NCBI GenBank assembly: GCA_035694895.1
Contig: DASSFA010000048.1
Location: 1-37,247 of the forward strand
Direction of reading: 5' to 3'
From: Rhodanobacteraceae bacterium
GTDB taxonomy: Bacteria > Pseudomonadota > Gammaproteobacteria > Xanthomonadales > Rhodanobacteraceae
DNA: 37,247 bases
Below the pieces are notes generated by a model that was given only the letters and a program-made list of their open reading frames with translations, ran no database searches and had not been told where the DNA came from. This document shows positions 1,686-35,384 of this stretch, piece by piece. How positions within the stretch are numbered: position 1 is the stretch's first letter; each line of letters starts with the position of its first letter. Both the position numbers and the translations under genes were made by a program.

Positions 1686-3262
1686 CAGTCGACGAACGCC
1701 GGCGAATCCAGCGCCTTGCGAAGCGGATCGAGAAGGGCGCCGTAGCGATTTGCATGCGCGGTATCGCGTCGCAACGGCTGGCGAACCTGCGTGGCACTGG
1801 GGGAACGCACATCGCGGCGGGTCTGGTGGAAATCCAGGCAGGCTTGCTCGAACGGCAGCCCGCAGCGGTTCAGCAGAGCGCGAATGCTGCTTTCCGGATC
1901 GGCAATCAGGTCCTCATAGACGTGCGTATAGACGTTCTCGGTGTGCAGCATCTGCCAGTGCGTGGCGGTGCGGTCGAAGGTATGCCAGAACGCGGCAAGA
2001 TCCTCGAACGTACGCTGATAATCATTGTTTTCCAGGTATTGCCGATAGCAGGAAAAGCAGGTTTCCACTGGGTCGCGTCGGCAGACAATGACGTGGGCGC
2101 CGGGCAGCATCGCTCGGATCGCGCCGATGTACATCCAGTTGCCGGGCAGCTTGTCCGTCAACGCAGGCTTGCTGCCCCGCCAATGTGCGGTTCTTTGCAG
2201 GTACGTTTGCCCCAGGCGTTGCCAGTCAGCGGGCTGCGCGTCCGCCGCCCACTGCGGGAACGGCTTGCCCACGCGGTGTGCTTCGGATGCCAGAACGAGC
2301 GGCAGATCGGGCAATTCCCCTGATCCTGCCACCTGGGAGTGCGATGCGAAAATTTGCTCGACCAGCGTCGAACCTGATCGCGGCAGGCCGACGATGAAGA
2401 TCATCCCACGGCCCAGCTCCCGGGCCGCGCCGTGTGGTGGCGGGGTAAACGCCTGCAGAATCAAGTCCATCTGCGCGTCGAACGCCTTCGCGTCCCAGCG
2501 CCGGCTGCGCCGCGCAACCGAGTTGGCATGCTCCAGGGCGGCCAGGGATTCTGCATATCGGCCTTCATCATCCAGCGCTTTGGCGAGAGCGAAACCGATT
2601 GCAACCAGGTCGTGGTCCGTGGCTCGCGAATCGCGCATGGCGCGCCGCATCTGCCCCACGTCCCCTTCGTTCAAGCGCATGGTCTTGAGGGCCGCGAGTC
2701 CCCACCATGCCATTCCGGTCCAGGGTTTACGTTCCAGAACATGTCGGTACGCGGCAATCGCCTCGTCCACCCGGTCTTCCATGCGCAGCATGTCCGCCAA
2801 CAAGGCGCGCGCATCCATATGCGCAGGGTCGAGCGTCACCGCTCGCCGCAGAGCTTCGATCGCCTCCGCGTGGCGCACCGACCGCGTCAACATCACGCCG
2901 AGATTGAACCAGGCCGTGGCGAGGGAGGGTTGCAGTTCGCAGGCGCGACGTAGTGCAGCTATGGCGCCTTCGTAGTCACCGCAGGATCCGAGCACCGCGC
3001 CCAGCGTGTTGTAGTAGAGCGGGTCATCAGGGCGTTGCGCGATGGCGGCCTGCATGATGCGCGCGGCTTCGCCGGGCCTGCCGCGCAGATCGAGCAAGCC
3101 GGCGTGCAGGCGCAGAACTTCCGGATGACGTGGATCGGATTGCAGCAGCGGCGCGATCCGGGTAGCCGCCTCGTCCGGTCGTCCCATTTCCAGTGCCTGT
3201 GCGGTCGCCAGGACGTGCGGGATGGCAGCCTGACTCAGGCCTTGTAATCTCGAACTGCTCAT
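1685..3262 (-). CDS. TPR repeat-containing sulfotransferase family protein
   Basis: 525 aa. Several clear TPR units (e.g. YYNTLGAVLGSCGDYEGAIAALRRACELQP), then GLPRSGSTLVEQ and CRRDPVETCFS sulfotransferase motifs. Confidence 0.85.
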   Translation of the reverse strand: MSSSRLQGLSQAAIPHVLATAQALEMGRPDEAATRIAPLLQSDPRHPEVLRLHAGLLDLRGRPGEAARIMQAAIAQRPDDPLYYNTLGAVLGSCGDYEGAIAALRRACELQPSLATAWFNLGVMLTRSVRHAEAIEALRRAVTLDPAHMDARALLADMLRMEDRVDEAIAAYRHVLERKPWTGMAWWGLAALKTMRLNEGDVGQMRRAMRDSRATDHDLVAIGFALAKALDDEGRYAESLAALEHANSVARRSRRWDAKAFDAQMDLILQAFTPPPHGAARELGRGMIFIVGLPRSGSTLVEQIFASHSQVAGSGELPDLPLVLASEAHRVGKPFPQWAADAQPADWQRLGQTYLQRTAHWRGSKPALTDKLPGNWMYIGAIRAMLPGAHVIVCRRDPVETCFSCYRQYLENNDYQRTFEDLAAFWHTFDRTATHWQMLHTENVYTHVYEDLIADPESSIRALLNRCGLPFEQACLDFHQTRRDVRSPSATQVRQPLRRDTAHANRYGALLDPLRKALDSPAFVD

Positions 3263-3365
3263 GTCGCCATTATCGTCTGGACCGCGAATCCGGAAAGCCG
3301 ATATACCATACCGCCTCGATCACGCGATGCTCCCGGGCGTGGCAACGGCGCAGCCGGCAAAGACA

Positions 3366-4805
3366 ATGCATATTCCCCGAAGCGACAACGAGGCCCAGCG
3401 ATTTTCCCATGCCTTGGAGCTCTGGCGCCGCGGGGACGTGGCGCAAGCCGAAGCCATCCTGCACGAACTGGTCGCGCGGCGGCCCGCCCGCGAGGATTTC
3501 TCCACACTGTTGGCCGAGGTTCTGCGCAACCAGGGCAGGCTGGACACCGCGTCGAGGGTAATCTTCGAATGCTGCAAGGCCGGCGGCTTCGATCCCGATG
3601 TGAGCCTGCGCGGAGCAAAATTCATCCAGCAGTGTCATCGCCACGGATTGGCCGACGAGCTATGCCGCGCGACGATTGCGCGCGGCGCGGTGAGCTCCGA
3701 GATGTGGTTCGTTGCGGGCAATATCGCCCGCGAACTCGGCGACTTCGACCGGGCGCGTACCGACTACCTCGCCGCGCTCGAGGCCGGCGTGGATCTGAAT
3801 TCCTCCATGGTGTTTGGTGCACTCGCCCGGACCCAGCGCTATCGTGATCCGGCGCATCCGGATTTCGCGAAATTCCTCGCGCACTTCGACAATTCCGGAT
3901 TTTCCGTGCGTGCGCGCGCGGCGACCGGCTTCGGGCTGGCAAAGGCCTACGACGATATCGGCGAGTGGCGAACCGCCGCAGGGGTATTGCGCAAGGCGAA
4001 TGCACTGGTGCGCACGGTGCAGTCGTGGGATTCCTCTGGCTGGCATCAATTCGTGGAGGCACGCGCCCGCGCGCGGGTTGCCCGCTTGCGATCCACGATT
4101 GCTCCGGATTTCGTCCCGGTCTTCATCCTGGGATTGCCGCGCACCGGTACCACGCTCACGGCAACACGGTTGGCCAGTCACATCGGTGCGCGCGATCGCG
4201 GTGAACTGCGGGTGTTGCGGTTCGTCGCCGAGGAGCTCATCCGCGGCGGCCATCTCGACAATGTGGGCGCGATCGGGGAGGCGGCACGGTTGTATTGCGC
4301 GCACGCGCGCCAGGACGATGCACCTGCGCGCTATTACATGGACCAGGATCCGCTCAATTTTCGCTACCTGGACCTGATCGAGGCGATGTTCCCGCAGGCG
4401 CAGATCATCCATTGCCGCCGCGATCGGGGTGACACCGCCCTTTCGCTGTGGAGCCAGGATTTCGCCCATCCGGATTGCGCATTCGCCTACGATTTCGATT
4501 CGATCGCCGATTACATGGCCGGGCACGATGAGCTGATGGCGCACTGGCGCCGGACGCTGTCATTGCCGATCCATACGGTGGATTACGAGTTGCTGGTCAC
4601 GGAACCGCAGCTTGTCCTGCGAGAACTTGCGGGGAGTATCGGAGCGCCTGAGCGGACCGCGCCGGAGGCGCAAGTCACGCCGATCAATTCGTCCAGCGTG
4701 TGGCAGGCACGCCAGCCTATCTATACGAGTTCGGTCGGGCGATGGCGCGCTTACCTTCCGTTCGTGCCGGAGCTTGCAAAGTTCGCAACCGGCACCGGCG
4801 GGTAA
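3366..4805 (+). CDS. TPR repeat-containing sulfotransferase family protein
   Basis: Contains GLPRTGTTL and CRRDRGDTALS motifs. The C-terminus (SVWQARQPIYTSSVGRW) is of the same subtype as 150..1685. The track ORF starts at 3261. I prefer the ATG at 3366 (MHIPRSDNEAQRF...), which aligns with paralog N-termini and leaves a 103-bp divergent promoter region. Confidence 0.8.
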   Translation: MHIPRSDNEAQRFSHALELWRRGDVAQAEAILHELVARRPAREDFSTLLAEVLRNQGRLDTASRVIFECCKAGGFDPDVSLRGAKFIQQCHRHGLADELCRATIARGAVSSEMWFVAGNIARELGDFDRARTDYLAALEAGVDLNSSMVFGALARTQRYRDPAHPDFAKFLAHFDNSGFSVRARAATGFGLAKAYDDIGEWRTAAGVLRKANALVRTVQSWDSSGWHQFVEARARARVARLRSTIAPDFVPVFILGLPRTGTTLTATRLASHIGARDRGELRVLRFVAEELIRGGHLDNVGAIGEAARLYCAHARQDDAPARYYMDQDPLNFRYLDLIEAMFPQAQIIHCRRDRGDTALSLWSQDFAHPDCAFAYDFDSIADYMAGHDELMAHWRRTLSLPIHTVDYELLVTEPQLVLRELAGSIGAPERTAPEAQVTPINSSSVWQARQPIYTSSVGRWRAYLPFVPELAKFATGTGG

Positions 4806-16547: not shown

Positions 16548-16665
16548 AACCCATCAAGACCGGCGGAGGGACAGGCCCTTTGAAGCCGGGGCAACCCGCG
16601 AATCGTTCGCAGGGTGCCAAATCCTGCGGAGATTCCACTCAAGGGGAGTCGCCGGGAGATGGGTC
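16548..16665 (+). promoter_or_regulatory. SAM-I (S-box) riboswitch aptamer
   Basis: AUCAAGACCGGCGGAGGGACAGGCCCUUUGAAGCCGGGGCAACC ... GGUGCCAAAUCCUGC ... GAGAUGGGU matches the S-box conserved core. P1 pairs ACCCAUC (16549-16555) with GAUGGGU (16658-16664). Located upstream of a methionine biosynthesis gene. Confidence 0.85.
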
Positions 16666-22278: not shown

Positions 22279-22623
22279 TCAGGCGTCCGATTCATCCAGC
22301 CATTCGTTCAGTGCCGCATGATCCGCTTCCGACAGCGCGATGATGCGTAGCCCGGCCCAATGCTGCCCGGGCACCGCGGCCGGTTCGCTCCACTGCTCGT
22401 GCACGCCGGCTTCCATCAGATGCATGCGGCCATCGCGGTCCGGCAACTGGAAGCGGACCTGGTACAGCGCGTCAGGCGTGAGCATGCGGCGGCCGATCAG
22501 CATCATGCCATTGCGCGAAAGGTTGCCGATGCGGCCCATGTTCTCGCCGGTCAATGCATCAGTGACCTCGATCGGGTCGAGCGCGGGCTTGCGCGTGGCA
22601 CGGCGTTGTTCCGGATCGTTCAT
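22279..22623 (-). CDS. single-domain PilZ protein (predicted c-di-GMP receptor), copy 1
   Basis: 114 aa. RxxxR (RRATR) and (D/N)xSxxG (NLSRNG) motifs with canonical spacing. The ATG overlaps the stop of the upstream large gene (ATGA at 22620-22623). The 317-aa track ORF is an out-of-context extension. Confidence 0.85.
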   Translation of the reverse strand: MNDPEQRRATRKPALDPIEVTDALTGENMGRIGNLSRNGMMLIGRRMLTPDALYQVRFQLPDRDGRMHLMEAGVHEQWSEPAAVPGQHWAGLRIIALSEADHAALNEWLDESDA

Positions 22624-24905
22624 TTCGTGAAGACCCCGCCTGGTTGGGGAGCACGGCCAACGAGTTCCCGGCCGAGGATGGCGGCGTTTGCCGTTTCCTG
22701 GCCCCTGCGGTCGGGAATGACGGCATGCGGACGGTGCAGGCCCGCGACCAGCGTATTCCAGGCGCGGTCCATCATCGATTCTGACTGCTGCGGCAGCAGT
22801 CGCGCCTGCCCGAGCACCATCAGGCGCGCCACCTGTTCCAGCCGGCGCTCCGGCGCGGCGACGCCGCGCGCGCTGACGAACAGGCAGCGGTTGGTGGCGA
22901 GCGTGTACCAGGCGAGCTTGCGTTGCACGCATTGGCCCTGCTGGTTGACGACGAACTCGAACCAGGTGCCGAACGGCAGCGAACGCAGCCGGGTCAAGGC
23001 GCGTTGTTCCTCCGCGCTGAGCGGCAGTTGCGGCGCATCGTGTTCGGCTTTCGGATCCTCGCTCTCGCCCAGGCGCTGGCGTGTCTTCAGGCGCACCGCC
23101 AGTTCGGTCTGGCTCGGCGCGCCCTGGCGTGCATCCGCCGCCGGCTGCAGATCCAGCACGCGCTGTGCAAGCTGCGACGCTTCCGGCCCCTGCAGCCCGA
23201 CCTGCGCCAGGCCGGCTTCGAGTTCCGCGCACAGCCGCGCGTTGTCGCGCTGTTCGGGCTCGCGCAGCAGCTCGTCTGCCGCGGCGAGGCGGCGATGGAA
23301 GGCCTCGCTATCCTCGCCGTGGCGCAGGATCGCCAGGGCCAGTGCATCGCACCAGGCCTGCTCCAGCAACGCCCGGATCAGCGGAGTGGTCTTGCGTCCG
23401 GCCAGGCGTTCGCCGATCGCGGCGGAAGCCCGCGCGCGCGCCTGCTCCAGCCGGTCGCGCCCTTGCGCGGCTTCCAGTTGGCGGCGCTCGGCGATTTCCG
23501 CGCGCCGGCGCAGTCCGCTGACGTGAGACTCCAGGTCGTCCACCAGCTTCTCGAGCAGCGACTGGTCGCCGGTGAATTCGTTCAGCACGCGATCCACCAC
23601 GCGTTGAAGCTTTTTGGCCAGCCCCTCGTCCACCTCGCCATCGCCCGCATCGAGCCACAGATTGGCGGTCTCGGCCACGGAGTTCAGCAGTCGTCGCGCG
23701 GGATGCGCGCGGCGGGTGAAGAAACTGCTGTCGGCCAGCGCCACCCGCAGCAGCGGAATCTGCAGGTGGGTCAGCATCCGCTGGGCGATGCCACCGCTGC
23801 GGGTTTCATCGAGCAGGCGGTCGAACAGCAGGGACACAAGCTCCAGCACGTCGCGATGTTCAGCCGCGAATTGCGGAACCTCTCCATCCGGGGCGAAGCG
23901 GTGCAATCCGGCGATGATGTCCTGACGCAGATCCTGGATGGTGCGCGGTACCTCGCGCCCGCCCAGATGCACCGGCGTCGATGCGCGGCCCTGCAAGGCG
24001 CCGAGGACCGACTGCAGGTCTTCGGTGGAGGCGATGTATCCGCCGCCGGTTCCTGCGGGGACCTGCGACGGGGTCGGGCGATGCTGGTCCAGCAGTTGGC
24101 GCAGCTTGCCGAGCGCTGCTTCCGCCGAGGCCGCCGTAGCGGCAGGCCTCGGCGCCGGAGCGGACCGGGCTCCGGCGCCGGGTCGCGCCGATTCCGCTTC
24201 GGTCCTCCTGGCTTTGGTTTCCTGGCTGCGCCGCGGCAGGAATGCGCGGAGATTGGGCAGGATGCCGCGTTGTGCGAGATGGTCGTTGAGGCCGCCATAA
24301 ATGGACTCGGCCGCCCCCATCACCCGGCGGTCGCAAAGCCGGTAAAACAATATCCGATGCTCGCGCGGCAGGCCCATGCACGATCCGATGTCGCGGAAGG
24401 CGTGGGCCAGCGCGTGCGGACCCAGCGGCAGCGCCTCCGCGTCCAGCAACGGCGAGGCGATCAGCACGCCATAGCGGTGGCCCAGTTCGAACAGGATCGG
24501 GTTGACGCGCAGTTCGGTGCGGGTGGCGATGTCATCCAGCGCCACCGCTTCGTCGAACTCATCATGGTCCACCAGCGTCAGATCGAAGCGCGTGCGGGGC
24601 GCGGCGATGCTGCGCAGGCCGAGCGCGGCTAGCCGTCGCTCGAGCGAGATCAGCAGTTGCGGCGCGGCATCGGCGCGATTGCGCTTGATCTCGCGCAGGC
24701 TTTCGAACGCGGTCTGCTGTTCGGCGTTGTTGCGCGACTGTTCGGCCAGCTTGAACAACTGCTGCTCGAACTCGGTCAGGCCGGCGCGCAGCAGGGGTTC
24801 CACGCGCGCACCGCACTCGGCGAGCTGCTCTTCCAGCAGCGTGCGCACGCGTGGCGGCAGCTCGATGCGCTCGGCCAGCTTCTGCGGTAAGCGTTCGGTT
24901 TTCAT
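22620..24905 (-). CDS. DUF1631-like large helical protein, copy 1
   Basis: 761 aa. The N-terminal pattern LP.RVR.LL...L......LFKLAEQSRNNAEQQTAFESLREIKRNR and the C-terminal LPFGTWFEF....G..VQRKLAWY......LFVSARG fit my memory of the DUF1631 family. Not verified by HMM. Confidence 0.7.
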   Translation of the reverse strand: MKTERLPQKLAERIELPPRVRTLLEEQLAECGARVEPLLRAGLTEFEQQLFKLAEQSRNNAEQQTAFESLREIKRNRADAAPQLLISLERRLAALGLRSIAAPRTRFDLTLVDHDEFDEAVALDDIATRTELRVNPILFELGHRYGVLIASPLLDAEALPLGPHALAHAFRDIGSCMGLPREHRILFYRLCDRRVMGAAESIYGGLNDHLAQRGILPNLRAFLPRRSQETKARRTEAESARPGAGARSAPAPRPAATAASAEAALGKLRQLLDQHRPTPSQVPAGTGGGYIASTEDLQSVLGALQGRASTPVHLGGREVPRTIQDLRQDIIAGLHRFAPDGEVPQFAAEHRDVLELVSLLFDRLLDETRSGGIAQRMLTHLQIPLLRVALADSSFFTRRAHPARRLLNSVAETANLWLDAGDGEVDEGLAKKLQRVVDRVLNEFTGDQSLLEKLVDDLESHVSGLRRRAEIAERRQLEAAQGRDRLEQARARASAAIGERLAGRKTTPLIRALLEQAWCDALALAILRHGEDSEAFHRRLAAADELLREPEQRDNARLCAELEAGLAQVGLQGPEASQLAQRVLDLQPAADARQGAPSQTELAVRLKTRQRLGESEDPKAEHDAPQLPLSAEEQRALTRLRSLPFGTWFEFVVNQQGQCVQRKLAWYTLATNRCLFVSARGVAAPERRLEQVARLMVLGQARLLPQQSESMMDRAWNTLVAGLHRPHAVIPDRRGQETANAAILGRELVGRAPQPGGVFTK

Positions 24906-24986: not shown

Positions 24987-25343
24987 CTAGAGGATCTTCA
25001 GGGCATCGCCATCGCCCAGCCAGGCGTTCAGCGCGGCGGCATCGTCGTCTGAAAGCGAGACGATGCGCAGGCCGGTCCAGTATTGCCCGGGTACCGCGGC
25101 GGGTTCGCCCCACATCTCGTGCAGGCCGGCCTCGATGACGCAGGACGCGCCTTGCGGGTCGGGCAGCTGGAAGCGGGTCTGGTACAGAGCGCCGTCCCCG
25201 AGTTTGCGGCGGCCGATCAACATCATTCCGTCGCGCGACAGATTGCCTATCCGGCCCAGGCTTTCGCCGCTCAAGGCATCCATCACCTCGATCGGTTCGG
25301 AAACGCGCTTGCGCCTGGCGCGACGTTGCTCGGGTGCGTTCAT
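24987..25343 (-). CDS. single-domain PilZ protein (predicted c-di-GMP receptor), copy 2
   Basis: 118 aa with RRARR and NLSRDG motifs. 77 of 114 positions are identical to copy 1 in an ungapped manual alignment. ATGA overlap with the upstream large gene (25340-25343). Confidence 0.85.
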   Translation of the reverse strand: MNAPEQRRARRKRVSEPIEVMDALSGESLGRIGNLSRDGMMLIGRRKLGDGALYQTRFQLPDPQGASCVIEAGLHEMWGEPAAVPGQYWTGLRIVSLSDDDAAALNAWLGDGDALKIL

Positions 25344-27496
25344 GCCCGCTCGACCTCGGCTTTGCCGAACTGCCGCAGGCTGGCGACGGTCAGATGCCAG
25401 GCGCGGTCAATCATGGATGCTTCCTGATGCGGCAACAGACGCGCACGTCCGGCCGCCATCTGCCGCGCCAGCTGGTCGAGCGTGCGTTCCCCCGTGGCCG
25501 CACCGCGCGGGTTGACCATCACGCATTGCCCGCTCTCGCCGTGCCAGATCAGCTTGCGCCGCACGCGCAGCCCCTGATCGGTGGTGCATTCGAACCATGT
25601 GTTGAACGGCAGTGCCCGCAATCGGCCGAGATTGCGCTGCTCCTCGTCGGTGAGTGGCGATGCGACGCGGCCGGTGCCGTCCTGATCGCCCAGACGCTGG
25701 CGGCCTTTCAGCTTCACCAGCAGTTCGGTCTGGGTCGCCTGCTCCCCGGCGCCGGGCGCCTCCCGATCCAGCACCCGATGCGCAAGCTGGCTGGCCTCTT
25801 CGGCGTGCAGGCCGACTTGCAGCAGGCCCTGCTCCAGTTCGCCGAGTAGACGCGCCTCCTCGCGCTCGCCGCGTTCGCCCACCAGTTCGGTGGCGATGCC
25901 GAGGGTGCGCGTGAACGCCTCGCTGCCTTCGCCGTGGCGCAGGATCGCCAGCGCCAGCGCATCGGTCCACGCCTGTTCCAGCAGCGCGCGGATCAAGCCG
26001 GCGGGCTTGCGTTCGGCGACCAGGTTTCCGATCGCGGCGGCAGCCTGGGCCCGCGCCAATTCCAGTTTCTCCCTTCCCTGCGCCGCATCGCACTGCCGGC
26101 GTTCGGCCACCTCGGCGCGTCGGCGCAGGGCGTTGACATGGCTTTCCAGTTCGGTCGCCTGTTGTTCGAACAACGCGGGATCGCCGTTGAAATTGGCCAG
26201 CGTGTATTCCACGGTCTGGCGCAGCTTGTCGAGCAACGCGTTGTCCGGCTCACCCTCGCTGCCGTCGATCCATAGATCGGCGGTTTCGGCCACGGCGTTG
26301 AGCAGGCGCCGCGCCGGGTGCGTACCGCGCTGAAAGATACTGCTGTCCGCGAGGGCCGTGCGCAGCCATGGGACCTGCAGACGCGACAGCAGGCGTTGCG
26401 CGGCACCGCCGCCGCGGGTGTCGTCGATCAGCCGTTCGAACCACAGCGACACCAGGTCGAATACATCGCGTTGCTCGATCGCCAGCCGCATGCTCGTCGC
26501 GTTTGGCGTCAGGCGGCGCAATTCCAGGAGCAAATCCTGATGCAGATTCCGCATCGAATTCTGCACGCCGCGTGCGTCCGGCGGCGCGGCCGTCTGAGCC
26601 CGCTGCTGCAAGGCCGCGAGCGCGGCCTGTACCGATTCCGCCGATGCGGACTGCGCATCGACAGGTTCGGTTCCTTCGAGCTTCAACAGCTCCCGTCTCC
26701 GCGCCAGCAGGCTCCGCAGCGGCGTAAGAGCCTCCTCTCCGGCAGCAGCTTCGCCCGCCTTGCCCGGACCGGCGGATCTGTCCGGCCCGCGCCGCGTGCG
26801 CGGCGCATTCCCGCGGCGCGGCAGATACGGGCGCAGCGACGAAAAAATACCCTGCGCGATCAGGCGCTGGTTCAGCATCGCATAGGCATCGTCCACTGCG
26901 CCCAGCAGCGGCGCATCCAGCAGCCGGTACCAGGAAATGCGGTGCTCCCGCTCAAGCCCGGCTTCGCGCGCGATCTCGCCCAGGCCGCGCAGCAGCGCGC
27001 GCGGGCCCAGCGCCAGTTCCTCGGCTTCGAACGGCGATCGTGCCGCGAGCGCGCCATACCGGTAACCCAGCTCGAACAGCTGGCGCGCCGCGCGGATTTC
27101 CGCGCGCGTGGCGATGTCGTCCAGCAGGACTGTCTCCTCGAACTCGTTGTCGTCGATCAGGCTGAGGCCACCCTCCAGCGATCCTGCATGCCAGGCCGCG
27201 GTTGCGGTCCGATCGAATGCGGCCAGCTTGCGTTCGAAGGTCCACCGGAACACCTGCATGATCTCGGTGTCCAGCTGCTTGGCTTTCTGCATGGCGGAGA
27301 GCGTGGCCTGCTCTTCCGCGCCGCTGCGCGGGCGCGATTCGCTCCGCTTTGCGAGCTGATGCCGGAATGCCAGCAGGCTGCCATGCAGCAGGGGTTCCAC
27401 TTGGACGCCCAGTTCCGCCAACTGCCCAGCCAGCAACTCGCGCACGCGCGCCGGCAGATCGGTGCGCGCGGCGATGCTGGAAGGCGTTTCGGGCAT
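25340..27496 (-). CDS. DUF1631-like large helical protein, copy 2
   Basis: Paralog of 22620..24905 with the same N- and C-terminal patterns (LPARVRELLAGQLAE...; LPFNTWFECTTDQGLRVRRKLIWHG....VMVNPRG) but much more diverged. I prefer the ATG at 27496; the track uses GTG at 27511. Confidence 0.7.
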   Translation of the reverse strand: MPETPSSIAARTDLPARVRELLAGQLAELGVQVEPLLHGSLLAFRHQLAKRSESRPRSGAEEQATLSAMQKAKQLDTEIMQVFRWTFERKLAAFDRTATAAWHAGSLEGGLSLIDDNEFEETVLLDDIATRAEIRAARQLFELGYRYGALAARSPFEAEELALGPRALLRGLGEIAREAGLEREHRISWYRLLDAPLLGAVDDAYAMLNQRLIAQGIFSSLRPYLPRRGNAPRTRRGPDRSAGPGKAGEAAAGEEALTPLRSLLARRRELLKLEGTEPVDAQSASAESVQAALAALQQRAQTAAPPDARGVQNSMRNLHQDLLLELRRLTPNATSMRLAIEQRDVFDLVSLWFERLIDDTRGGGAAQRLLSRLQVPWLRTALADSSIFQRGTHPARRLLNAVAETADLWIDGSEGEPDNALLDKLRQTVEYTLANFNGDPALFEQQATELESHVNALRRRAEVAERRQCDAAQGREKLELARAQAAAAIGNLVAERKPAGLIRALLEQAWTDALALAILRHGEGSEAFTRTLGIATELVGERGEREEARLLGELEQGLLQVGLHAEEASQLAHRVLDREAPGAGEQATQTELLVKLKGRQRLGDQDGTGRVASPLTDEEQRNLGRLRALPFNTWFECTTDQGLRVRRKLIWHGESGQCVMVNPRGAATGERTLDQLARQMAAGRARLLPHQEASMIDRAWHLTVASLRQFGKAEVERA

Positions 27497-27538
27497 TGCG
27501 GTTCCCGGCACGGCGGACGTGCGGTGATTCTAGTCCAG

Positions 27539-29397: not shown

Positions 29398-29484
29398 GAG
29401 GGGGCAGGGCACGGCGTGGCGGCCGTTCCCGACCGCCGCCCACCGCGACGCCAAGGATCGCGGCGCTTGCGAACGATTCGCAAT

Positions 29485-29665
29485 GCCGCGGCTGCAGGCC
29501 GGTCTCCGGGCTCGCGAGCGGTGTTCCTTCCGGAACACTCACCGGATCGCCTTCCCGCGCTGATCGCGCAGTGGCTCTTGTGATCCGTTCGACTCGCCTA
29601 CCGTTGCGGGGGCAGCTCCGGCTTCGAACCGGCTTCCCGTTTCACCCAAACATCAAATCGACGCG
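29485..29665 (-). promoter_or_regulatory. cobalamin (adenosylcobalamin) riboswitch
   Basis: The minus strand reads GGUGAAACGGGAAGCCGGUUCGAAGCCGGAGCUGCCCCCGCAACGGUA ... GCCACUG ... and the B12 box AGCCCGGAGACCGGCCUGC (plus coordinates 29494-29512). These are the classic conserved blocks, upstream of btuB. Confidence 0.85.
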
Positions 29666-29923
29666 AATGGGCACCTGCAAGCCGCGCAGTGTAAGTGGGG
29701 AGTCCAACCAAACACAACAGAGCAGGCCATGGATGGCCGTGTCGAAGTGAGCTTTCCGGCGCCGTCGCATGGCGGCGAGCATCGCAGCGCCAGGCGGGAG
29801 CAAGGCGCGACTGTTTGAGCACAAGGACGTGCGAGTTCGCGCCGGCCCGCTTGGCGCGAGAAGCGCAGCGGAGTCGAGCCAACCGGACGTTGGCGAGACC
29901 GTCATGCCCGGCGCCATTGGCTT

Positions 29924-29969
29924 TTACTTTCCCCGAAAGGAAAGTAACCCGCGCCGTGGGACGGCGCGG
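29924..29969. other. twin stem-loops (possible terminator of the CPXCG gene, or part of a repeat mosaic)
   Basis: TTACTTTCC (29924-29932) / GGAAAGTAA (29939-29947). CCGCGCCG (29949-29956) / CGGCGCGG (29962-29969). On the minus strand the GC hairpin is followed by GUUACUUUCCUUUC. Confidence 0.3.
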
Positions 29970-30001
29970 AAAAGACATGGATGTCGTGGATCAATTTTCG
30001 A

Positions 30002-30028
30002 GGAGCCCGGCTGTCGCGCGCAGGCGCA
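30002..30028 (-). repeat. REP-like unit TGTAGGAGTGCGCCTGCGCGCG, copy 2
   Basis: The reverse complement of 30006-30028 is identical to 19059-19081. Confidence 0.5.
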
Positions 30029-30077
30029 CTCCTACAAAAGCTGCTGCGGTACGAGCCTGCTGCTGACGACCGATGAC

Positions 30078-30263
30078 TCATTCGTCCATGCGACGCACAC
30101 TCACCTCGATCACGTCTTCTGCATCCACCCGCACGTGGAATTCGATCGGCTTGCAGCACACCTGGCAATCCTCGACGTACCGGGTGGAACCCGTCGAGGC
30201 GTCCACGCTGGTGTCGAATGATTCGCCGCAATACGGGCAGGTGATTGTCACGAATTCGAGCAT
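30078..30263 (-). CDS. CPXCG motif-containing cysteine-rich mini-protein (zinc ribbon)
   Basis: 61 aa: MLEFVTITCPYCGESFDTSVDASTGSTRYVEDCQVCCKPIEFHVRVDAEDVIEVSVRRMDE. Has CPYCG plus CQVCC pairs. AAGGAG lies 9 nt upstream of the ATG. Only the last 61 codons of the 522-aa track ORF are real. Confidence 0.85.
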   Translation of the reverse strand: MLEFVTITCPYCGESFDTSVDASTGSTRYVEDCQVCCKPIEFHVRVDAEDVIEVSVRRMDE

Positions 30264-30353
30264 TGGCGCCTCTCCTTCACGCGACCGCCACGGCGCGCGA
30301 CAAAAAGTATGTTGATCCTGCACCAATGAATGGCGTTCCGCCAAAAGGTTGAC

Positions 30354-31343
30354 ATGGAAGTCGAACGCAGGAGCGGTCTCTCCTACGCGCAATTCGTGCG
30401 CGAATACATGCTGCCGCGCAAGCCGGTGATCATCACCGATGCGCTGGACGAATGCCCGGCGCGGCAAAAGTGGACCCCTGATTACTTCCTCGAACGTTTC
30501 GGCGAGCGGCGACTGCGCGCCGAATCCGGCGAGATGAGCATGCGCGAAATCGTGAACGGCGTGCTGCATCCGCCAGCCGATCGCATGCCGTTCCTGCGCG
30601 AATCCCCGATTTCGTGGTGGCTGCCCGAGGCGATGGCGGACCTCGCGCCGTTTCCACCCTACGTGCATCCCAACTGGCTGACGTATCCGTTCGCTCGCTG
30701 GCCGGACGTGCGCCGCAGCGGCTATGCCAGCCGGCTGGCGCGCACGGCGCAGACGGAGATCAATTTCACCGGTGCCAACATGCGCTTCGGCGCGCTGCAT
30801 CTGGATCTGTTCTGGACCCACGCGCTGGTGATGCAGTGGCATGGCGCCAAGAAGTTCTTCATCTTCCCGGCCGCGGACACCAAGCACCTCTACCGGAAAC
30901 CGGAAGCCTGGATATCCGAGATCACCGACGTCGAGCACCCCGACTACGCGAAATTCCCCGATTTCGCCAACGCGCACATGATCGAATTCACCCTGCAGGC
31001 GGGCGAGGCATATTTCAATCCGACCGGCTGGTGGCACACCACGCGCACGCTGGATGTCTCGATCGCCACGGTGGTCAGCTTCGCCAATGCCAGCAACTGG
31101 AAGGAAGTCACGCAACACTTGTTGCCGCCGAATGCGCCCCTGCGTTCCAGGCTGGGTGCGTTGCCGTATCGCGCCTACCTGCGTGCACTCGGGGTGTGGA
31201 TGCTGCCGCATTACGCCTTCCCCGAAGCCACCGATCCGGCCTGGTGCCGCGACTCGCTGACGCATTACTGGCGCACCGCGGGCAGTTGGGCGGGCTCGGC
31301 GCTGGGCGGCGTGCCGGAAGAGGCGATGGCCTCGCGTTACTGA
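30354..31343 (+). CDS. JmjC/cupin-like Fe(II)/2-oxoglutarate oxygenase family protein, paralog 1
   Basis: 329 aa from the conserved MEVERRSGLSY start. N-terminal LSYAQFVREYMLPRKPVIITD...KWTPDYF is typical of cupin-8/JmjC proteins. HLD (HxD) followed by GAKKFFIFP (candidate 2OG-binding Lys) and a distal His in NPTGWWHTT. Confidence 0.85.
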   Translation: MEVERRSGLSYAQFVREYMLPRKPVIITDALDECPARQKWTPDYFLERFGERRLRAESGEMSMREIVNGVLHPPADRMPFLRESPISWWLPEAMADLAPFPPYVHPNWLTYPFARWPDVRRSGYASRLARTAQTEINFTGANMRFGALHLDLFWTHALVMQWHGAKKFFIFPAADTKHLYRKPEAWISEITDVEHPDYAKFPDFANAHMIEFTLQAGEAYFNPTGWWHTTRTLDVSIATVVSFANASNWKEVTQHLLPPNAPLRSRLGALPYRAYLRALGVWMLPHYAFPEATDPAWCRDSLTHYWRTAGSWAGSALGGVPEEAMASRY

Positions 31344-31389
31344 GACAAGCGTGATCGAAACCACGCCTGGCCTTTCGAAGATGATCGAG

Positions 31390-32370
31390 ATGGAAGTCGA
31401 ACGCAGGAGCGGCCTTTCGTACGACGAGTTCGAGCGCGAATACATGCTGCCGTGCAGGCCGGTGATCCTCACCGATTCGGTGGACGAATGTCCGGCGCGG
31501 CGCAAGTGGACGCCGGAATATTTCCGCGAGCGCTTCGGCGATCGCCGGTTGCTCACGGTCTCTGGCGAGATGACGATGCGCGAAATCGTGGAGGGGGTGT
31601 TGCACCCGGGCACCGGGCGCGTGCCGTTCCTGCGCGAATCGCCCATCGCCTGGTGGGTGCCGGAACTGATGCCCGATCTTGCGCCTGGCCCGTGCTACGG
31701 GCGGCCCAATTGGCTGACCTATCCGTTCGCGCGCTGGCCGGACGTGCGCCGCAGCGGTTACGCCGCGCGGCTGATCCGCATCGGCCAGATCGAGATGAAT
31801 TTCACCGGCGCCAACATGCGTTATCCCACGCTGCACGTGGACTTGTTCAAGACCCACGCGCTGCTCGTGCAGTGGTATGGCGCCAAGAAATTCTTCATCT
31901 TCCCCGAGGAAGATACGAAGTATCTCTATCGCAAGCCCGGGACCTGGGTCTCGCAGATCACCGACGTCGAGCATCCGGACCTCGCGAAGTTCCCCGACTT
32001 CGCCAAGACGCACATGATCGAGTTCACCTTGCAGCCGGGCGAGGCGTATTTCAATCCAACCGGCTGGTGGCATACCACGCGTACGCTGGGCGTCTCGATC
32101 GGCACGGTGATGAGCCTGGTCAATGCCAGCAACTGGAAAGAAGTGACCAGGAACCTGCTGATGCCAGATGCTCCGCTGCGCTCGCGCCTGAGCGCGTTGC
32201 CATATCGCGCCTATTTGCGCGCACTCGGGGCATGGAAGCTGCCCCACTACAGCTTTCCAGACGCCTCCGATCCGACGTGGTGCCGCGAGTCGCTGGCACG
32301 TTATCGGCGAACGGCGGGAAGCTGGGTGGGGCAAGCCAACGGTGGCGTGCCGGAAACAGCAAAGATGTGA
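31390..32370 (+). CDS. JmjC/cupin-like Fe(II)/2-oxoglutarate oxygenase family protein, paralog 2
   Basis: Same architecture (HVD ... GAKKFFIFP ... GWWHTT). Start set at the conserved MEVERRS; alternatives are ATG 31381 and GTG 31351. Confidence 0.85.
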   Translation: MEVERRSGLSYDEFEREYMLPCRPVILTDSVDECPARRKWTPEYFRERFGDRRLLTVSGEMTMREIVEGVLHPGTGRVPFLRESPIAWWVPELMPDLAPGPCYGRPNWLTYPFARWPDVRRSGYAARLIRIGQIEMNFTGANMRYPTLHVDLFKTHALLVQWYGAKKFFIFPEEDTKYLYRKPGTWVSQITDVEHPDLAKFPDFAKTHMIEFTLQPGEAYFNPTGWWHTTRTLGVSIGTVMSLVNASNWKEVTRNLLMPDAPLRSRLSALPYRAYLRALGAWKLPHYSFPDASDPTWCRESLARYRRTAGSWVGQANGGVPETAKM

Positions 32371-32413
32371 TCCCTCCGCGCCAGGGAATGGCGCTCCCGC
32401 ACAGGGAGTTGAC

Positions 32414-33394
32414 ATGGAAGTCGAACGCAGAAGCAATCTCTCGTACGAGCAGTTCGTGCGCGAATACATGCTGCCGCGCAAGCCGGTGATCATCACCGAC
32501 GTGATGGACAAATGTCCGGCGCGACGCAAATGGACCCCTGATTATTTCCGCGAGCGGTTCGGGACGCGCCGCTTGCGCACGGATGCGGGCGAAATGACCA
32601 TGGCCGAAATCGTGGAGGGCGTGCAGAACCCCAAGGAGGGCCGCACGCCGTTCCTGCGCCAGACGCCGATCGCGTGGTGGCTGCCCGAGGCGATGGCCGA
32701 TCTCGCGCCGTACCCCTGCTATGCCCACCCGAACTGGCTGTCCTATCCGTTCGCGCGCTGGCCGGATCTGCGCCGCAGCGGCTACGCGAGCAGGCTCACG
32801 CGCATCGGTCAGTGCGAGATCAATATCACCGGCGCCAACATGCGTTTTCCCACGCTGCACATGGATCTGTTCTGGCTGCACGCACTGGTGATGCAGTGGT
32901 ACGGCACCAAGAAGTTCTACATCTTCCCGATGGAAGATACGAAATATCTCTATCGCAAGCCGGGGACCTGGGTCTCGCAGATCACCGACGTCGAGCATCC
33001 AGATCTTGCGAAGTTTCCCGATTTCGCCAAGACACACATGACCGAGTTCACCCTGCACGCGGGCGAGGCCTATTTCAATCCGACCGGCTGGTGGCATACC
33101 ACGCGCACCGAGAGCATCTCGATCGGCACGGCGATGAGCTTCGCCAACGCCAGCAACTGGAAGACCATGACGGAGAACCTGCTGATACCCGGCGCGCCGC
33201 TGCGCTCGCGCGTGGGCGCGCTGCCGTATCGCGCCTATCTGCGCATGCTCGGCGCCTGGACGCTGTCGCGCTGCGCGATCCCCGAAACCACGGATCCGGC
33301 CTGGTGTCGCGAGTCACTCAAGCATTACCAGCGCACCGCCGGAAGCTGGGCGGGTGGCTCGCAAGGCGGGGTGCAGGAAAAGGTGCCGGCCTAG
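32414..33394 (+). CDS. JmjC/cupin-like Fe(II)/2-oxoglutarate oxygenase family protein, paralog 3
   Basis: Same architecture (HMD ... GTKKFYIFP ... GWWHTT). GGGAG lies 6 nt upstream of the MEVERRS ATG; the track ORF starts at 32342. Confidence 0.85.
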   Translation: MEVERRSNLSYEQFVREYMLPRKPVIITDVMDKCPARRKWTPDYFRERFGTRRLRTDAGEMTMAEIVEGVQNPKEGRTPFLRQTPIAWWLPEAMADLAPYPCYAHPNWLSYPFARWPDLRRSGYASRLTRIGQCEINITGANMRFPTLHMDLFWLHALVMQWYGTKKFYIFPMEDTKYLYRKPGTWVSQITDVEHPDLAKFPDFAKTHMTEFTLHAGEAYFNPTGWWHTTRTESISIGTAMSFANASNWKTMTENLLIPGAPLRSRVGALPYRAYLRMLGAWTLSRCAIPETTDPAWCRESLKHYQRTAGSWAGGSQGGVQEKVPA

Positions 33395-33445: not shown

Positions 33446-34714
33446 TTACGGCATGAAGAGCTCGATCACATCGTTGAGGAAGCGCTGGCCGAGTCCGGTC
33501 GTGCGCAACATGCGCGCATCTTCATGCATCCATCCGCGCGCGACTGCTTCGCGCAATGGCTGACGAACGGCCTCGAGCGGAAGCCCGGTGCGCGCGGCGA
33601 AATCGCCGATCGACACACCGTCGACCAGGCGCAGCGCATTCAGCATGTACTCGAACGGCAGCTGCTCGCGCGGCACTTCGGAATCGCCGTCGATGCGCCG
33701 CGCGGTTCCCGCGTTCTCCAGAAAAGCGCGCGGATGCTTCACCTTCCAGCGGCGGCGGACATTCAACTCAGGGGCCGTCCCGTCCGCCATCTCCCGTCCG
33801 CCGCCTTCCGTGATTTTCCCGTGGGCTCCCGCACCGATCCCGAGGTAATCGCCGAAGCGCCAGTAATTGAGGTTGTGCACGCAGCGCCTGCCATCGCGCG
33901 CATAGGCCGACACCTCGTATTGCGCGTAACCCGCCTGCGCGAGACGCGCCTGACACGCCTCCTGCATCGCCCAGGCCTCGTCGTCATCCGGCAGCGGCGG
34001 CGGATTCGCGGCGAAGGCGGTGTTGGGCTCCAGCGTCAACTGGTAATGAGAGACATGCGCGGGACGAAGCGCGATCGCGCGCTCGATGTCGTCCAGCGCG
34101 CCGGCAAGCGTCTGTTCCGGCAACGCATACATCAAGTCGAGATTGATGTTGTCGAAGCCCGCGTCCTGCGCCAGTTTCACCGCGCTCTCCGCCTCGCCGG
34201 AGGAGTGGATGCGCCCCAGCGCGCGCAGCATCGCATCGTCGAAACTCTGCACGCCGAAGGAAATGCGGTTGACGCCCGCGCGCGCGTAGCCGTCGAAGCG
34301 CCCGTGCTCGACGGTGCCGGGATTGGTTTCCAGTGTGACCTCGCATCCAGGCGCGAATTTCAGTCGCCTGGCCGTGCCTTCCAGGATTTCCGCAATGCGT
34401 TCCGGCGCAAACAGGCTCGGCGTGCCGCCACCGAAGAACACGCTGACGATTTCGCGCCCGGTGAGCGCTTCGCCGAAATCGTGCAGGTCACCGTCGAGAT
34501 CCGCGAGCAGTGCAGCCACGTACTCGCGCGCCGGCAATTCGCCGCGCAGTCCATGCGAATTGAAATCGCAGTACGGGCATTTGCGCACGCACCAGGGGAT
34601 GTGGACGTAGAGCGAGAGCGGGGGTTGGGGGTGAATATTGGGCGCCAAATGCCTTGCCCCCTCTCCCTTGGGTAAGGGTTCGGCCGGAGCGGTACGCTTC
34701 AAATCCCGCGACAT
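33446..34714 (-). CDS. hemW: radical SAM family heme chaperone HemW (HemN-like)
   Basis: CxxxCxxC radical-SAM cluster motif in LYVHIPWCVRKCPYCDFNS, GGGTPS, and a HemN C-terminal domain. The start is uncertain. ATG 34714 is given here. TTG 34648 is plausible because codons before it derive from a PLPxGEG repeat unit. The track ORF to 34795 overlaps rdgB. Confidence 0.85.
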   Translation of the reverse strand: MSRDLKRTAPAEPLPKGEGARHLAPNIHPQPPLSLYVHIPWCVRKCPYCDFNSHGLRGELPAREYVAALLADLDGDLHDFGEALTGREIVSVFFGGGTPSLFAPERIAEILEGTARRLKFAPGCEVTLETNPGTVEHGRFDGYARAGVNRISFGVQSFDDAMLRALGRIHSSGEAESAVKLAQDAGFDNINLDLMYALPEQTLAGALDDIERAIALRPAHVSHYQLTLEPNTAFAANPPPLPDDDEAWAMQEACQARLAQAGYAQYEVSAYARDGRRCVHNLNYWRFGDYLGIGAGAHGKITEGGGREMADGTAPELNVRRRWKVKHPRAFLENAGTARRIDGDSEVPREQLPFEYMLNALRLVDGVSIGDFAARTGLPLEAVRQPLREAVARGWMHEDARMLRTTGLGQRFLNDVIELFMP

Positions 34715-34757
34715 GAAAGTTCGGTGCGTGCTTGGACATTGAGACATGCGCGGACCC

Positions 34758-35384
34758 TCACCCCAACCCCTCTCCCGAGGGGAGAGGGGCCACATCGGCC
34801 AAGCTCTTTCGCAGGAACGTCAGTGCCTGCCCGCGGTGGCTGATGCGGTTCTTCAGCGCGGGATCGAGTTCGGCTGCGCTCAGGCCCCCGCCGTCGTGCG
34901 GCAGGAACACCGGGTCGTAACCGAAGCCTCGTTGCCCGCGCGGCGCGCGGAGGATGCGGCCGGGCCAGCGTGCCTGCGCAATCAGCGGATCGGGATCGTG
35001 CGCGTGCCGCAACAGCGCGAGCGCGCAGATGAAATGCGCGCCGCGTCGCTCGTCGGGGGTGCCTTCCAGCTCGCGCAGCAGCTTTTCGATGTTGGCGTCC
35101 GAGTCGCCGTGCGCGCCGGCGTAGCGCGCGGAGTACAGCCCCGGCGCGCCGTGCAGCGCATCCACGCACAATCCGGAATCGTCGCCCAATGCGGGCAGGT
35201 TCGAGGCGCGCGCGGCATGCCGTGCCTTGAGGATCGCGTTCTCGATGAAAGTCAGCCCGGTTTCGTCGGCATCATGGACGCCGAGCTGCGACTGCGCGAT
35301 CAATTCGACGCCCGAGCCTGCGAACAGCTCGCGCAATTCGGCGAGCTTGCCGGCATTGCCGCTCGCGAGAAGCACTTTGCGCAT
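34758..35384 (-). CDS. rdgB: dITP/XTP pyrophosphatase (non-canonical purine NTP pyrophosphatase)
   Basis: MRKVLLASGNAGKLAELRELF, TFIENAILKARHAA, GDDSGLCVDALHGAPGLYSARYAG, GFGYDPVF, SHRGQAL. I chose the ATG at 35384; the track extension (IPASAGMTAKRG) is translated repeat DNA. Confidence 0.9.
   Translation of the reverse strand: MRKVLLASGNAGKLAELRELFAGSGVELIAQSQLGVHDADETGLTFIENAILKARHAARASNLPALGDDSGLCVDALHGAPGLYSARYAGAHGDSDANIEKLLRELEGTPDERRGAHFICALALLRHAHDPDPLIAQARWPGRILRAPRGQRGFGYDPVFLPHDGGGLSAAELDPALKNRISHRGQALTFLRKSLADVAPLPSGEGLG
34767..34789. repeat. perfect 10-bp-arm palindrome CCCCTCTCCC-GAG-GGGAGAGGGG (PLPxGEG-type repeat unit)
   Basis: Read directly from the sequence. It encodes the last codons of rdgB (APLPSGEGLG). 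A degenerate second unit (CCCCCTCTCCCTTGGGTAAGGG) lies at 34657-34678. Confidence 0.7.

Follow-up and report, generated by a model that had tools for sequence, protein, structure and literature searches.

A variable-copy tandem array of predicted JmjC-type oxygenase genes in a conserved slot of Rhodanobacteraceae genomes

The subject of this report is a tandem array of three Cupin_8 genes in a DNA stretch of 37,247 nucleotides (nt) from a Rhodanobacteraceae bacterium (assembly GCA_035694895.1, contig DASSFA010000048.1), and this whole stretch is called the window below. In the six-frame list of open reading frames (ORFs), the array consists of three consecutive plus-strand ORFs, each trimmed to the common start MEVERRS. 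Their coordinates are exactly those of an earlier note on this DNA, which had described three back-to-back genes of about 330 amino acids (aa) with MEVERRS starts and spacers of 43-46 nt; the gaps are 46 nt between paralogs 1 and 2 and 43 nt between paralogs 2 and 3.

30354-31343, plus strand: paralog 1 (P1, W_1), 329 aa, clade A, triad HLD, Cupin_8 E-value 6.5e-25
31390-32370, plus strand: paralog 2 (P2, W_2), 326 aa, clade B, triad HVD, Cupin_8 E-value 2.1e-22
32414-33394, plus strand: paralog 3 (P3, W_3), 326 aa, clade C, triad HMD, Cupin_8 E-value 1.3e-23

At the DNA level the gene unit repeats in tandem, the periods being 1036 and 1024 nt, and the three members are about equidistant from one another (75-76% protein and 78-79% nt identity for each pair). 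The start call is supported because MEVERRS is common to nearly all of the 22 copies in related loci while the sequence 5' of it diverges. The spacers are short and a terminator scan detected no intrinsic terminators between the cupin genes, which makes co-transcription of the three genes probable. GC content at third codon positions is 0.82-0.84 in the array and equal to that of neighbouring genes; this argues that the genes are long-resident, and a recent horizontal origin was rejected for the same reason.

The assignment to the JmjC/cupin oxygenases, made at first from the letters alone, was borne out by profile searches and by structure modelling. PF13621 (Cupin_8) scored 88.9, 80.7 and 84.7 bits for P1, P2 and P3, respectively, against a gathering cut-off of 27.4, and it is carried by all 79 homologs found. 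The Pfam JmjC and JmjC_2 models were sub-threshold for all three paralogs, and NCBIfam and PADLOC scans of these and of the CPXCG protein encoded beside them returned no family. A sequence search of PDB, with matches taken at E <= 0.01, gave TYW5, JMJD5, JMJD6, JMJD7 and FIH. An AlphaFold2 model of P1, built on a 47-sequence family alignment, has eight core strands with high confidence (predicted local distance difference test 92.2, predicted template modelling (TM) score 0.91). Foldseek places JMJD5 first (E 8e-20, target-normalised TM score 0.85), followed by TYW5, JMJD6, JMJD7 and FIH, and the probability of 1.00 to each of the five indicates that the double-stranded beta-helix (DSBH) fold is present in the model.

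The catalytic residues are complete. The iron triad of each copy consists of HLD, HVD or HMD at residues 149-151 and His228 in GWWHTT, and Lys166, the lysine for 2-oxoglutarate (2OG), sits 17 residues past His149 in all three, just as had been noticed before for the HxD, the GWWHTT histidine and a lysine about 17 residues downstream. In P1 the corresponding codons are as follows.

30798-30800, plus strand: His149 of P1
30804-30806, plus strand: Asp151 of P1
30849-30851, plus strand: Lys166 of P1
31035-31037, plus strand: His228 of P1

These four residues are invariant in the 47-sequence family alignment, in all 22 array copies and in the outgroup locus L007 (L numbers designate related loci). 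H149, D151, H228 and K166 align with H321, D323, H400 and K336 of JMJD5, which are known as its metal triad and as the lysine for the 2OG C5 carboxylate (PMC5862942). No signal peptide-like N-terminus was recognised by direct reading of the sequences. On this evidence the array proteins are predicted to be cytoplasmic JmjC-type Fe(II)/2OG oxygenases of the clade of FIH and the wybutosine (yW) hydroxylase, and the three paralogs are very probably all catalytically competent. We strongly infer hydroxylation chemistry, because both fold and ligands match: each enzyme would bind Fe(II), 2OG and O2 and decarboxylate 2OG to succinate and CO2, and a ferryl species would then hydroxylate a C-H bond.

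Genome and metagenome scans recovered the same locus only in uncultured Rhodanobacteraceae metagenome-assembled genomes (MAGs) and soil metagenomes. The triple array is not a characterised operon in any reference genome and is known only from MAGs. In all recovered loci the genes occupy one slot, which is bounded by the CPXCG gene at its left end and by hemW at its right end.

30078-30263, minus strand: CPXCG zinc-ribbon protein gene (61 aa, PF14255 E-value 8.6e-23), divergent from the array, left boundary of the slot
33446-34795, minus strand: hemW-like radical SAM gene (Radical_SAM and HemN_C), convergent with the array, right boundary of the slot

The CPXCG gene adjoins the array or single gene in L001-L004, L016-L020, L025, L026 and L027, and hemW follows the last copy directly in every complete locus. 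The number of genes between them varies as follows, and several truncated contigs hold at least 2-3 copies.

1 copy: L004, L018, L019
2 copies: L020
3 copies: the window, L002, L016
4 copies: L001

The array therefore is not "kept intact" as the earlier note had put it: relatives hold one, two, three or four copies, which a codon-based neighbour-joining tree with bootstrap divides into at least 5-6 paralog clades (A, B, C, C', D and E). Clade A, supported by 100% bootstrap, stands first in the array in each of the related loci; clade B (100%) includes P2 and clade C (77%) includes P3. More distant loci (L007 and L027, 54-55% identity) have a single gene at the same position, in the order DUF1631, TonB-dependent receptor, (CPXCG), cupin, hemW, and therefore one copy is likely the ancestral state. 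None of the 22 copies is interrupted; their ORFs measure 326-330 aa, and all retain the catalytic residues.

Copies cluster by ortholog and not by genome, with 96-100% bootstrap for these groups. W_1 and L001_1 are 93% and W_2 and L001_2 95% identical in nt, with synonymous divergence (dS) of about 0.2 and ratios of nonsynonymous to synonymous divergence (dN/dS) of 0.10 and 0.11, respectively; among the window paralogs dS is 0.6-0.8 and dN/dS 0.20-0.28. P3 is the most divergent and most mosaic copy. Its nearest ortholog, L001_3 (L001 8067-9056), is 81% identical in nt (dS 0.47, dN/dS 0.32), its nearest neighbour shifts along the gene, and its 3' third has no close relative in the sampled loci (<=78% identity). 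This divergence may be due either to faster turnover of distal copies or to a true ortholog that was not sampled. An origin of P3 by unequal crossover, as a chimera of L001-type copies 3 and 4, was considered and is not supported, since L001_4 is never nearest to the P3 3' end. Concerted evolution, under which paralogs should be closest within a genome, does not describe these data (93-95% for orthologs vs 78% for window paralogs), and the array is read as an old one with a history of birth-and-death evolution under purifying selection. It would have started from a single gene between CPXCG, which lies next to btuB, and hemW, as found in L007, L027 and L004. The gene would then have been duplicated in tandem together with its leader, in a unit of about 1030 nt, and unequal recombination would have led to birth and death, with short conversion tracts rare and old. 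Present-day genomes keep 1-4 paralog lineages, clade A standing first and the distal copies varying.

The sites that differ between copies are informative on function. Human JMJD5 (KDM8), an arginyl C-3 hydroxylase (PDB 6F4P, 4GJY), is the best structural match of the window proteins and shares with them the DSBH JmjC fold, the HxD...H triad and the beta-IV lysine for the 2OG C5 carboxylate. The identity is only 22-24%, and the window proteins differ from JMJD5 in having about 90 aa of additional helical sequence at the C-terminus and in being bacterial, cytoplasmic, single-domain tandem copies. Some of the most variable positions of the array align with residues by which JMJD5 contacts its substrate, and they differ by clade. 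Residue 57, at the position of E238, which binds the substrate arginine (PMC5862942), is E in clade A, V in clade B and D, I or T in clade C (E/V/D in P1/P2/P3), and residue 62 (Y243) is S/T/T in the window copies. Residue 138 (W310) is F, I or L (F/F/I in the window), and residue 146 (S318) is G in clades A and D and P elsewhere (G/P/P). The x of HxD also varies between paralogs. The arginine pocket of JMJD5, with its E238 salt bridge, Y243 cation-pi contact, W310 and S318, is thus not found here: the E238 position is acidic throughout only in clade A, and no copy has the Tyr.

Since wybutosine is absent from bacteria, the substrate of TYW5, the human tRNA wybutosine hydroxylase, cannot be the same here. 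TYW5 (PDB 3AL5) is the top sequence match in PDB (E 1.7e-15) and likewise has a C-terminal helical extension; at 17-21% identity it superposes poorly over the full length (root-mean-square deviation of about 14 A). Like the window proteins, it is placed in the FIH/yW-hydroxylase clade of JOR/JmjC proteins, a clade described in PMC2938197.

From the divergence of the pocket-aligned sites we infer that the paralogs have distinct substrate or regio-selectivity, that is, they would differ in the substrate or the position accepted. The alternative posed by the earlier note, dosage or substrate diversification, is thereby tilted toward diversification, which the 75% protein identity, the purifying selection and the differences at pocket sites make likelier.

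For the class of substrate, information comes from distant relatives. Bacteroidetes (Pedobacter, Puia and others) have a homolog with 37-42% identity as one of two or three distinct Cupin_8 genes, whose subfamilies a, b and c have 28-46% identity among themselves. These sets adjoin genes for a fatty acyl-AMP ligase (FAAL)-polyketide synthase (PKS)/nonribosomal peptide synthetase (NRPS) pair, a phosphopantetheinyl transferase, a glycosyltransferase, a flippase and a methyltransferase. Other proteobacterial contigs (48-49%) carry modules in the order Cupin_8, Methyltransf_21, Cupin_8 (, Cupin_8), methyltransferase, one of them with an aminotransferase gene. All three window paralogs belong to subfamily c, with 37-42% identity to its Bacteroidetes members and 48-49% to that of L009, vs 27-32% to a or b.

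Coordinates were recorded for these clusters. The FAAL-PKS/NRPS loci, where Wzx/Wzy-type genes are also present, are L012 7001-8736, L013 7001-7834 and 12603-14389, and L014/L015 4895-7879; no product assigned to these clusters was found. The modules with Methyltransf_21 (FkbM-type), in which a class I methyltransferase gene comes last, are at L009 5234-9029, L028 1966-4747 and L029 805-4538, and those of L009 and L028 adjoin a tRNA-synt_1c (GluRS-like) gene. A Cupin_8 protein of 27-30% identity is encoded in a Janthinobacterium MAG (L006 3721-6753) directly 3' of a gene for a GH18 chitinase with CBM5/12 modules; being from another subfamily, this protein was dropped as an informative relative.

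Bacterial JOR/JmjC proteins of the FIH/yW clade have been described as embedded in NRPS-type neighbourhoods (PMC2938197). Among bacterial stand-alone Cupin_8/JmjC enzymes, PbsQ and BipG of the biphenomycins, which are ribosomally synthesised and post-translationally modified peptides, are demonstrated peptidyl-ornithine hydroxylases (PMC12257519, PMC12707348), and LxaF and LxaG of the laxaphycin NRPS pathway are predicted Cupin_8 Leu/Asn beta-hydroxylases (PMC7524897). These enzymes were likened to the window proteins by description only. The 38-49% identical relatives sit in clusters comparable to the PbsQ and LxaF settings, beside one or two distinct Cupin_8 genes. Unlike PbsQ, BipG, LxaF and LxaG, the window array lies outside any biosynthetic cluster within 37 kb, and unlike the a, b and c genes in the clusters of its relatives, its Cupin_8 genes are paralogs of the one subfamily c. 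A literature search on Cupin_8 and PF13621 by name gave plant papers only. Because the relatives are c members in PKS/NRPS and methyltransferase clusters, a tailoring-type substrate is our guess: an amino-acid side chain in a peptide or an amino-acid-derived metabolite may tentatively be proposed, rather than a ribosomal protein.

The explanation that we prefer as a whole, with moderate confidence, is a lineage-specific JmjC array of variable copy number that carries out paralog-specific and probably tailoring-type hydroxylation. Several points weigh against it. The relatives on which the substrate class depends are only 38-49% identical and their own function is itself only predicted, and the closest solved structures are hydroxylases of proteins (JMJD5, JMJD6/7, FIH) or tRNA (TYW5), which keeps a protein or RNA substrate conceivable. 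Pocket residues were mapped through an alignment of only 22% identity, and their assignment is approximate. Within the 37-kb window there are no NRPS, PKS, precursor-peptide or other tailoring genes, and the putative operon structure is read only from short spacers and the absence of terminators. The related loci are all MAG or metagenome contigs, and some of the copy counts could be wrong if repeats of 78% identity were collapsed or expanded during assembly; these counts come from several independent assemblies, in which the copies are well resolved.

Because the closest structures are protein hydroxylases, a protein substrate is a serious rival, even if we consider it unlikely. According to this possibility, which matches the 'family of related targets' of the earlier note, the paralogs would resemble YcfD/RoxA, JMJD5, JMJD7 and FIH in acting on one or several cellular proteins, such as translation factors or ribosomal proteins, and each paralog would have its own residue or target. 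The ranking of JMJD5 first and of JMJD6, JMJD7 and FIH after it is in favour of this, as are the acidic residue kept by clade A at the E238 position and the solitary position of the genes among the housekeeping genes hemW, rdgB and rph. However, with a housekeeping target one would not expect close relatives to range from 1 to 4 copies and to have lost different clades, the more distant family members are found in biosynthetic-type clusters, and the Y243 position is Ser or Thr. Membership in the ribosomal oxygenases (YcfD/RoxA, MINA53/NO66) is indicated neither by PF08007, the model of that family, which gave 17.6-19 bits against a 22-bit cut-off, nor by NCBIfam. E. coli YcfD/RoxA (Cupin_4, PF08007) likewise is a bacterial hydroxylase of the JmjC superfamily with an HxD...H triad; it differs from the window proteins, which are sub-threshold for PF08007 and have no NCBIfam equivalog, in belonging to a different clade, and it is not among their PDB sequence matches at E <= 0.01.

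It is also conceivable, though improbable in our estimate, that the copies are functionally redundant, being kept for dosage or drifting neutrally, and that the variation in copy number has no adaptive meaning. Copy number is free to range from 1 to 4, the L004 lineage manages with one, and the catalytic residues are identical in all copies, which speaks for this view. Yet dosage duplicates should be near-identical, and these have 75% protein identity and dS of 0.6-0.8. Moreover, none of the 22 copies is disrupted, dN/dS is 0.1-0.3, orthologs of individual paralogs are conserved across genomes, and the most variable sites align with pocket positions.

A third possibility starts from the mosaic similarity that the earlier note had emphasised. 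Its residue counts were reproduced exactly: the first 45 aa of P3 show 6 differences to P1 and 11 to P2, and its 58-aa block (residues 175-232) shows 3 to P2 and 10 to P1. In sliding windows P3 is nearest to P1 at the 5' end and nearest to P2 at gene nt of about 480-660. The N-terminal half of this pattern is better explained by orthology. Over nt 1-120, P3 is 94% identical to L001_3 vs 87% to P1, and because the likeness to P1 is exceeded by that to an ortholog, no conversion is needed there. The P2-like block is moderately supported and corresponds to the following pair of stretches.

32894-33103, plus strand: candidate old conversion tract in P3, P2-like, gene nt of about 481-690 (approximate borders)
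31870-32079, plus strand: donor-like stretch in P2, counterpart of the P3 tract

The candidate tract spans the DSBH core from DTKYLYRKP to GWWHTTRT. Here the nt identity of P2 and P3 is 0.90-0.91 vs 0.70-0.80 for P1-P2 and P1-P3, the proportion of synonymous differences (pS) is 0.337 vs 0.54 for the other pairs, and that of nonsynonymous differences is 0.047 vs 0.086-0.103. The P2-like similarity is absent from L001_3 and thus specific to P3. A tree of the block gives (W_3,(W_2,L001_2)) with 75.5% bootstrap; the rest of the gene places P3 with L001_3 and L021_2. In a triplet random-walk permutation test p was 1.3e-3 for all sites and 0.06 for third codon positions. The pairwise homoplasy index (PHI) gave p = 0.036 on 13 sequences and was not significant at third positions or for the set of window and L001 copies. 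A scan of 627 triplets, which are non-independent, gave 14 at p <= 0.002 vs 1-2 expected; no triplet remains significant after Bonferroni correction. Uninterrupted identity between the window paralogs extends over 26-47 nt at most, with 38 nt in the candidate tract, and the runs of 47 and 38 nt exceed a naive permutation expectation. Since the longest run in the tract is just 38 nt, the event is regarded as old. It is plausible, with moderate support, that a tract of about 200 nt in copy 3 was converted long ago by copy 2, and our reading is that there was some old exchange within the family and no ongoing homogenisation.

Frequent and ongoing conversion, as a cause of the homogenisation in patches that was proposed before, draws on the triplet tests, the block with reduced pS and incongruent tree, and the runs above naive expectation, but we regard it as very improbable because the paralogs are roughly equidistant at 78% nt identity and grouped by ortholog, identical tracts do not exceed 47 nt, third-position tests and PHI on window and L001 copies are not significant, no triplet survives correction, the N-terminal likeness is exceeded by L001_3, and at most one old tract has moderate support.

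The preferred explanation, an array of paralog-specific and probably tailoring-type hydroxylases, makes the locus a lineage-specific expansion within a known kind of enzyme and reveals neither a system nor a mechanism that is new. The case for gene conversion, which had made the array look unusual, is weak. The locus is of interest mainly because hardly any of the many bacterial JmjC/Cupin_8 hydroxylases have been characterised. The clades, at least 5-6 in number with 70-80% identity, form a natural enzyme series with a fixed core and variable pocket-aligned sites, which is suited to studies on how specificity is encoded. In addition, the locus ties a free-standing family to the c member of Cupin_8 sets in PKS/NRPS and methyltransferase clusters, and this could help to assign function to both. 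A more specific idea, which we hold to be quite doubtful, is that the array consists of tailoring hydroxylases orphaned from their biosynthetic cluster, and serves soil Rhodanobacteraceae as a variable cassette set hydroxylating peptide- or lipopeptide-like molecules. It could detoxify, or confer resistance to, antibiotics or signals made by neighbours, or it could diversify the envelope or a secreted product of the cell itself; in a variant of the idea, the three subfamily-c paralogs could have functionally replaced an ancestral a, b, c set of Cupin_8 genes. If the orphaned set were true, strain variation in copy number and clade would reflect an arms race.

Upstream sequences of 15 copies were compared, and a leader of about 45 nt was found to have been duplicated along with the gene.

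30308-30353, plus strand: leader 5' of P1, motif TATGATGATCC...GCGCCAAGGGATGGCGC...GGGAGGTTGAC-ATG
31344-31389, plus strand: spacer 1, 46 nt, no terminator, departs from the common leader motif
32371-32413, plus strand: spacer 2, 43 nt, copy of the common leader motif (gcgccagggaatggcgc tcccgcacagggag ttgac)

The motif, in which a small inverted repeat precedes a Shine-Dalgarno-like GGAG, recurs before most family copies, including L001_3, L001_4, L002_1, L003_1, L003_2 and L005_2. The variant leader in spacer 1 is shared by P2 and L001_2, and the P2 stop codon falls within the duplicated 'ATGTGATCC' junction. The hairpin GCGCC/GGCGC is retained in most copies with weak covariation (a term of -0.33 kcal/mol over 5 pairs), and the leader could be an operator or a translational hairpin; a regulatory RNA is not claimed, as the covariation is weak. 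A promoter scan found no sigma-70 consensus promoter.

Pfam and Rfam scans gave the conserved order DUF1631, btuB, CPXCG, the array, hemW, rdgB and rph, the last two being on the minus strand beyond hemW. The features on the left side are as follows.

22620-24905 and 25340-27511, minus strand: pair of DUF1631 genes, 48% aa identity, 5' of btuB, kept as a pair in L001, L002 and L004
27539-29350, minus strand: btuB-type TonB receptor gene (Plug and TonB_dep_Rec)
29480-29694, minus strand: cobalamin riboswitch of btuB (RF00174, 114.6 bits), a neighbour outside the array

The doubt expressed in the earlier note about a link between JmjC-like genes and TonB receptor loci was justified, as the receptor is BtuB behind a cobalamin riboswitch, and a functional link of the array with btuB or vitamin B12 was rejected as mere synteny. 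To the neighbourhoods of JOR/JmjC genes with TonB, SapC and tryptophan halogenase genes described by Iyer et al. (2010, PMC2938197), the sole likeness is a JmjC gene near a TonB receptor gene; the locus differs from them in its BtuB receptor and housekeeping synteny, and neither SapC nor tryptophan halogenase genes are found within the 37-kb window. None of the 79 homologs is named as a Xanthomonas protein, and no literature linking 'Pass1', TonB and Xanthomonas was found. Methyltransferase genes or other Cupin_8 subfamilies alongside the array are likewise absent within the window.

Relative to L002 and L004, the window has an extra 235-330 nt or so at about 29740-30075, between the riboswitch and the CPXCG stop. 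This stretch contains a terminator-like hairpin at 29948-29970 (minus strand) and the sequence GTAGGAGTGCGCCTGCGCGCGACAG, present once in the window, which we take to resemble repetitive extragenic palindromic (REP)-type repeats of Xanthomonadales.

Two further features lie at a distance from the array. Three adjacent paralogs encoding fusions of tetratricopeptide repeats (TPR) with Sulfotransfer_3 are located 25 kb from the cupin genes, at 150-1685 (minus strand), 1685-3262 (minus strand) and 3261-4805 (plus strand), with 25-37% aa identity. Sulfotransferases co-occur with dioxygenases (PMC2938197), and a link of the two trios, by hydroxylation and then sulfation, rests on the coincidence of number only. 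An S-adenosylmethionine (SAM) riboswitch at 16548-16665 (plus strand; RF00162, 83.8 bits) precedes genes for a pyridoxal phosphate-dependent enzyme of Cys/Met metabolism and a homoserine dehydrogenase.

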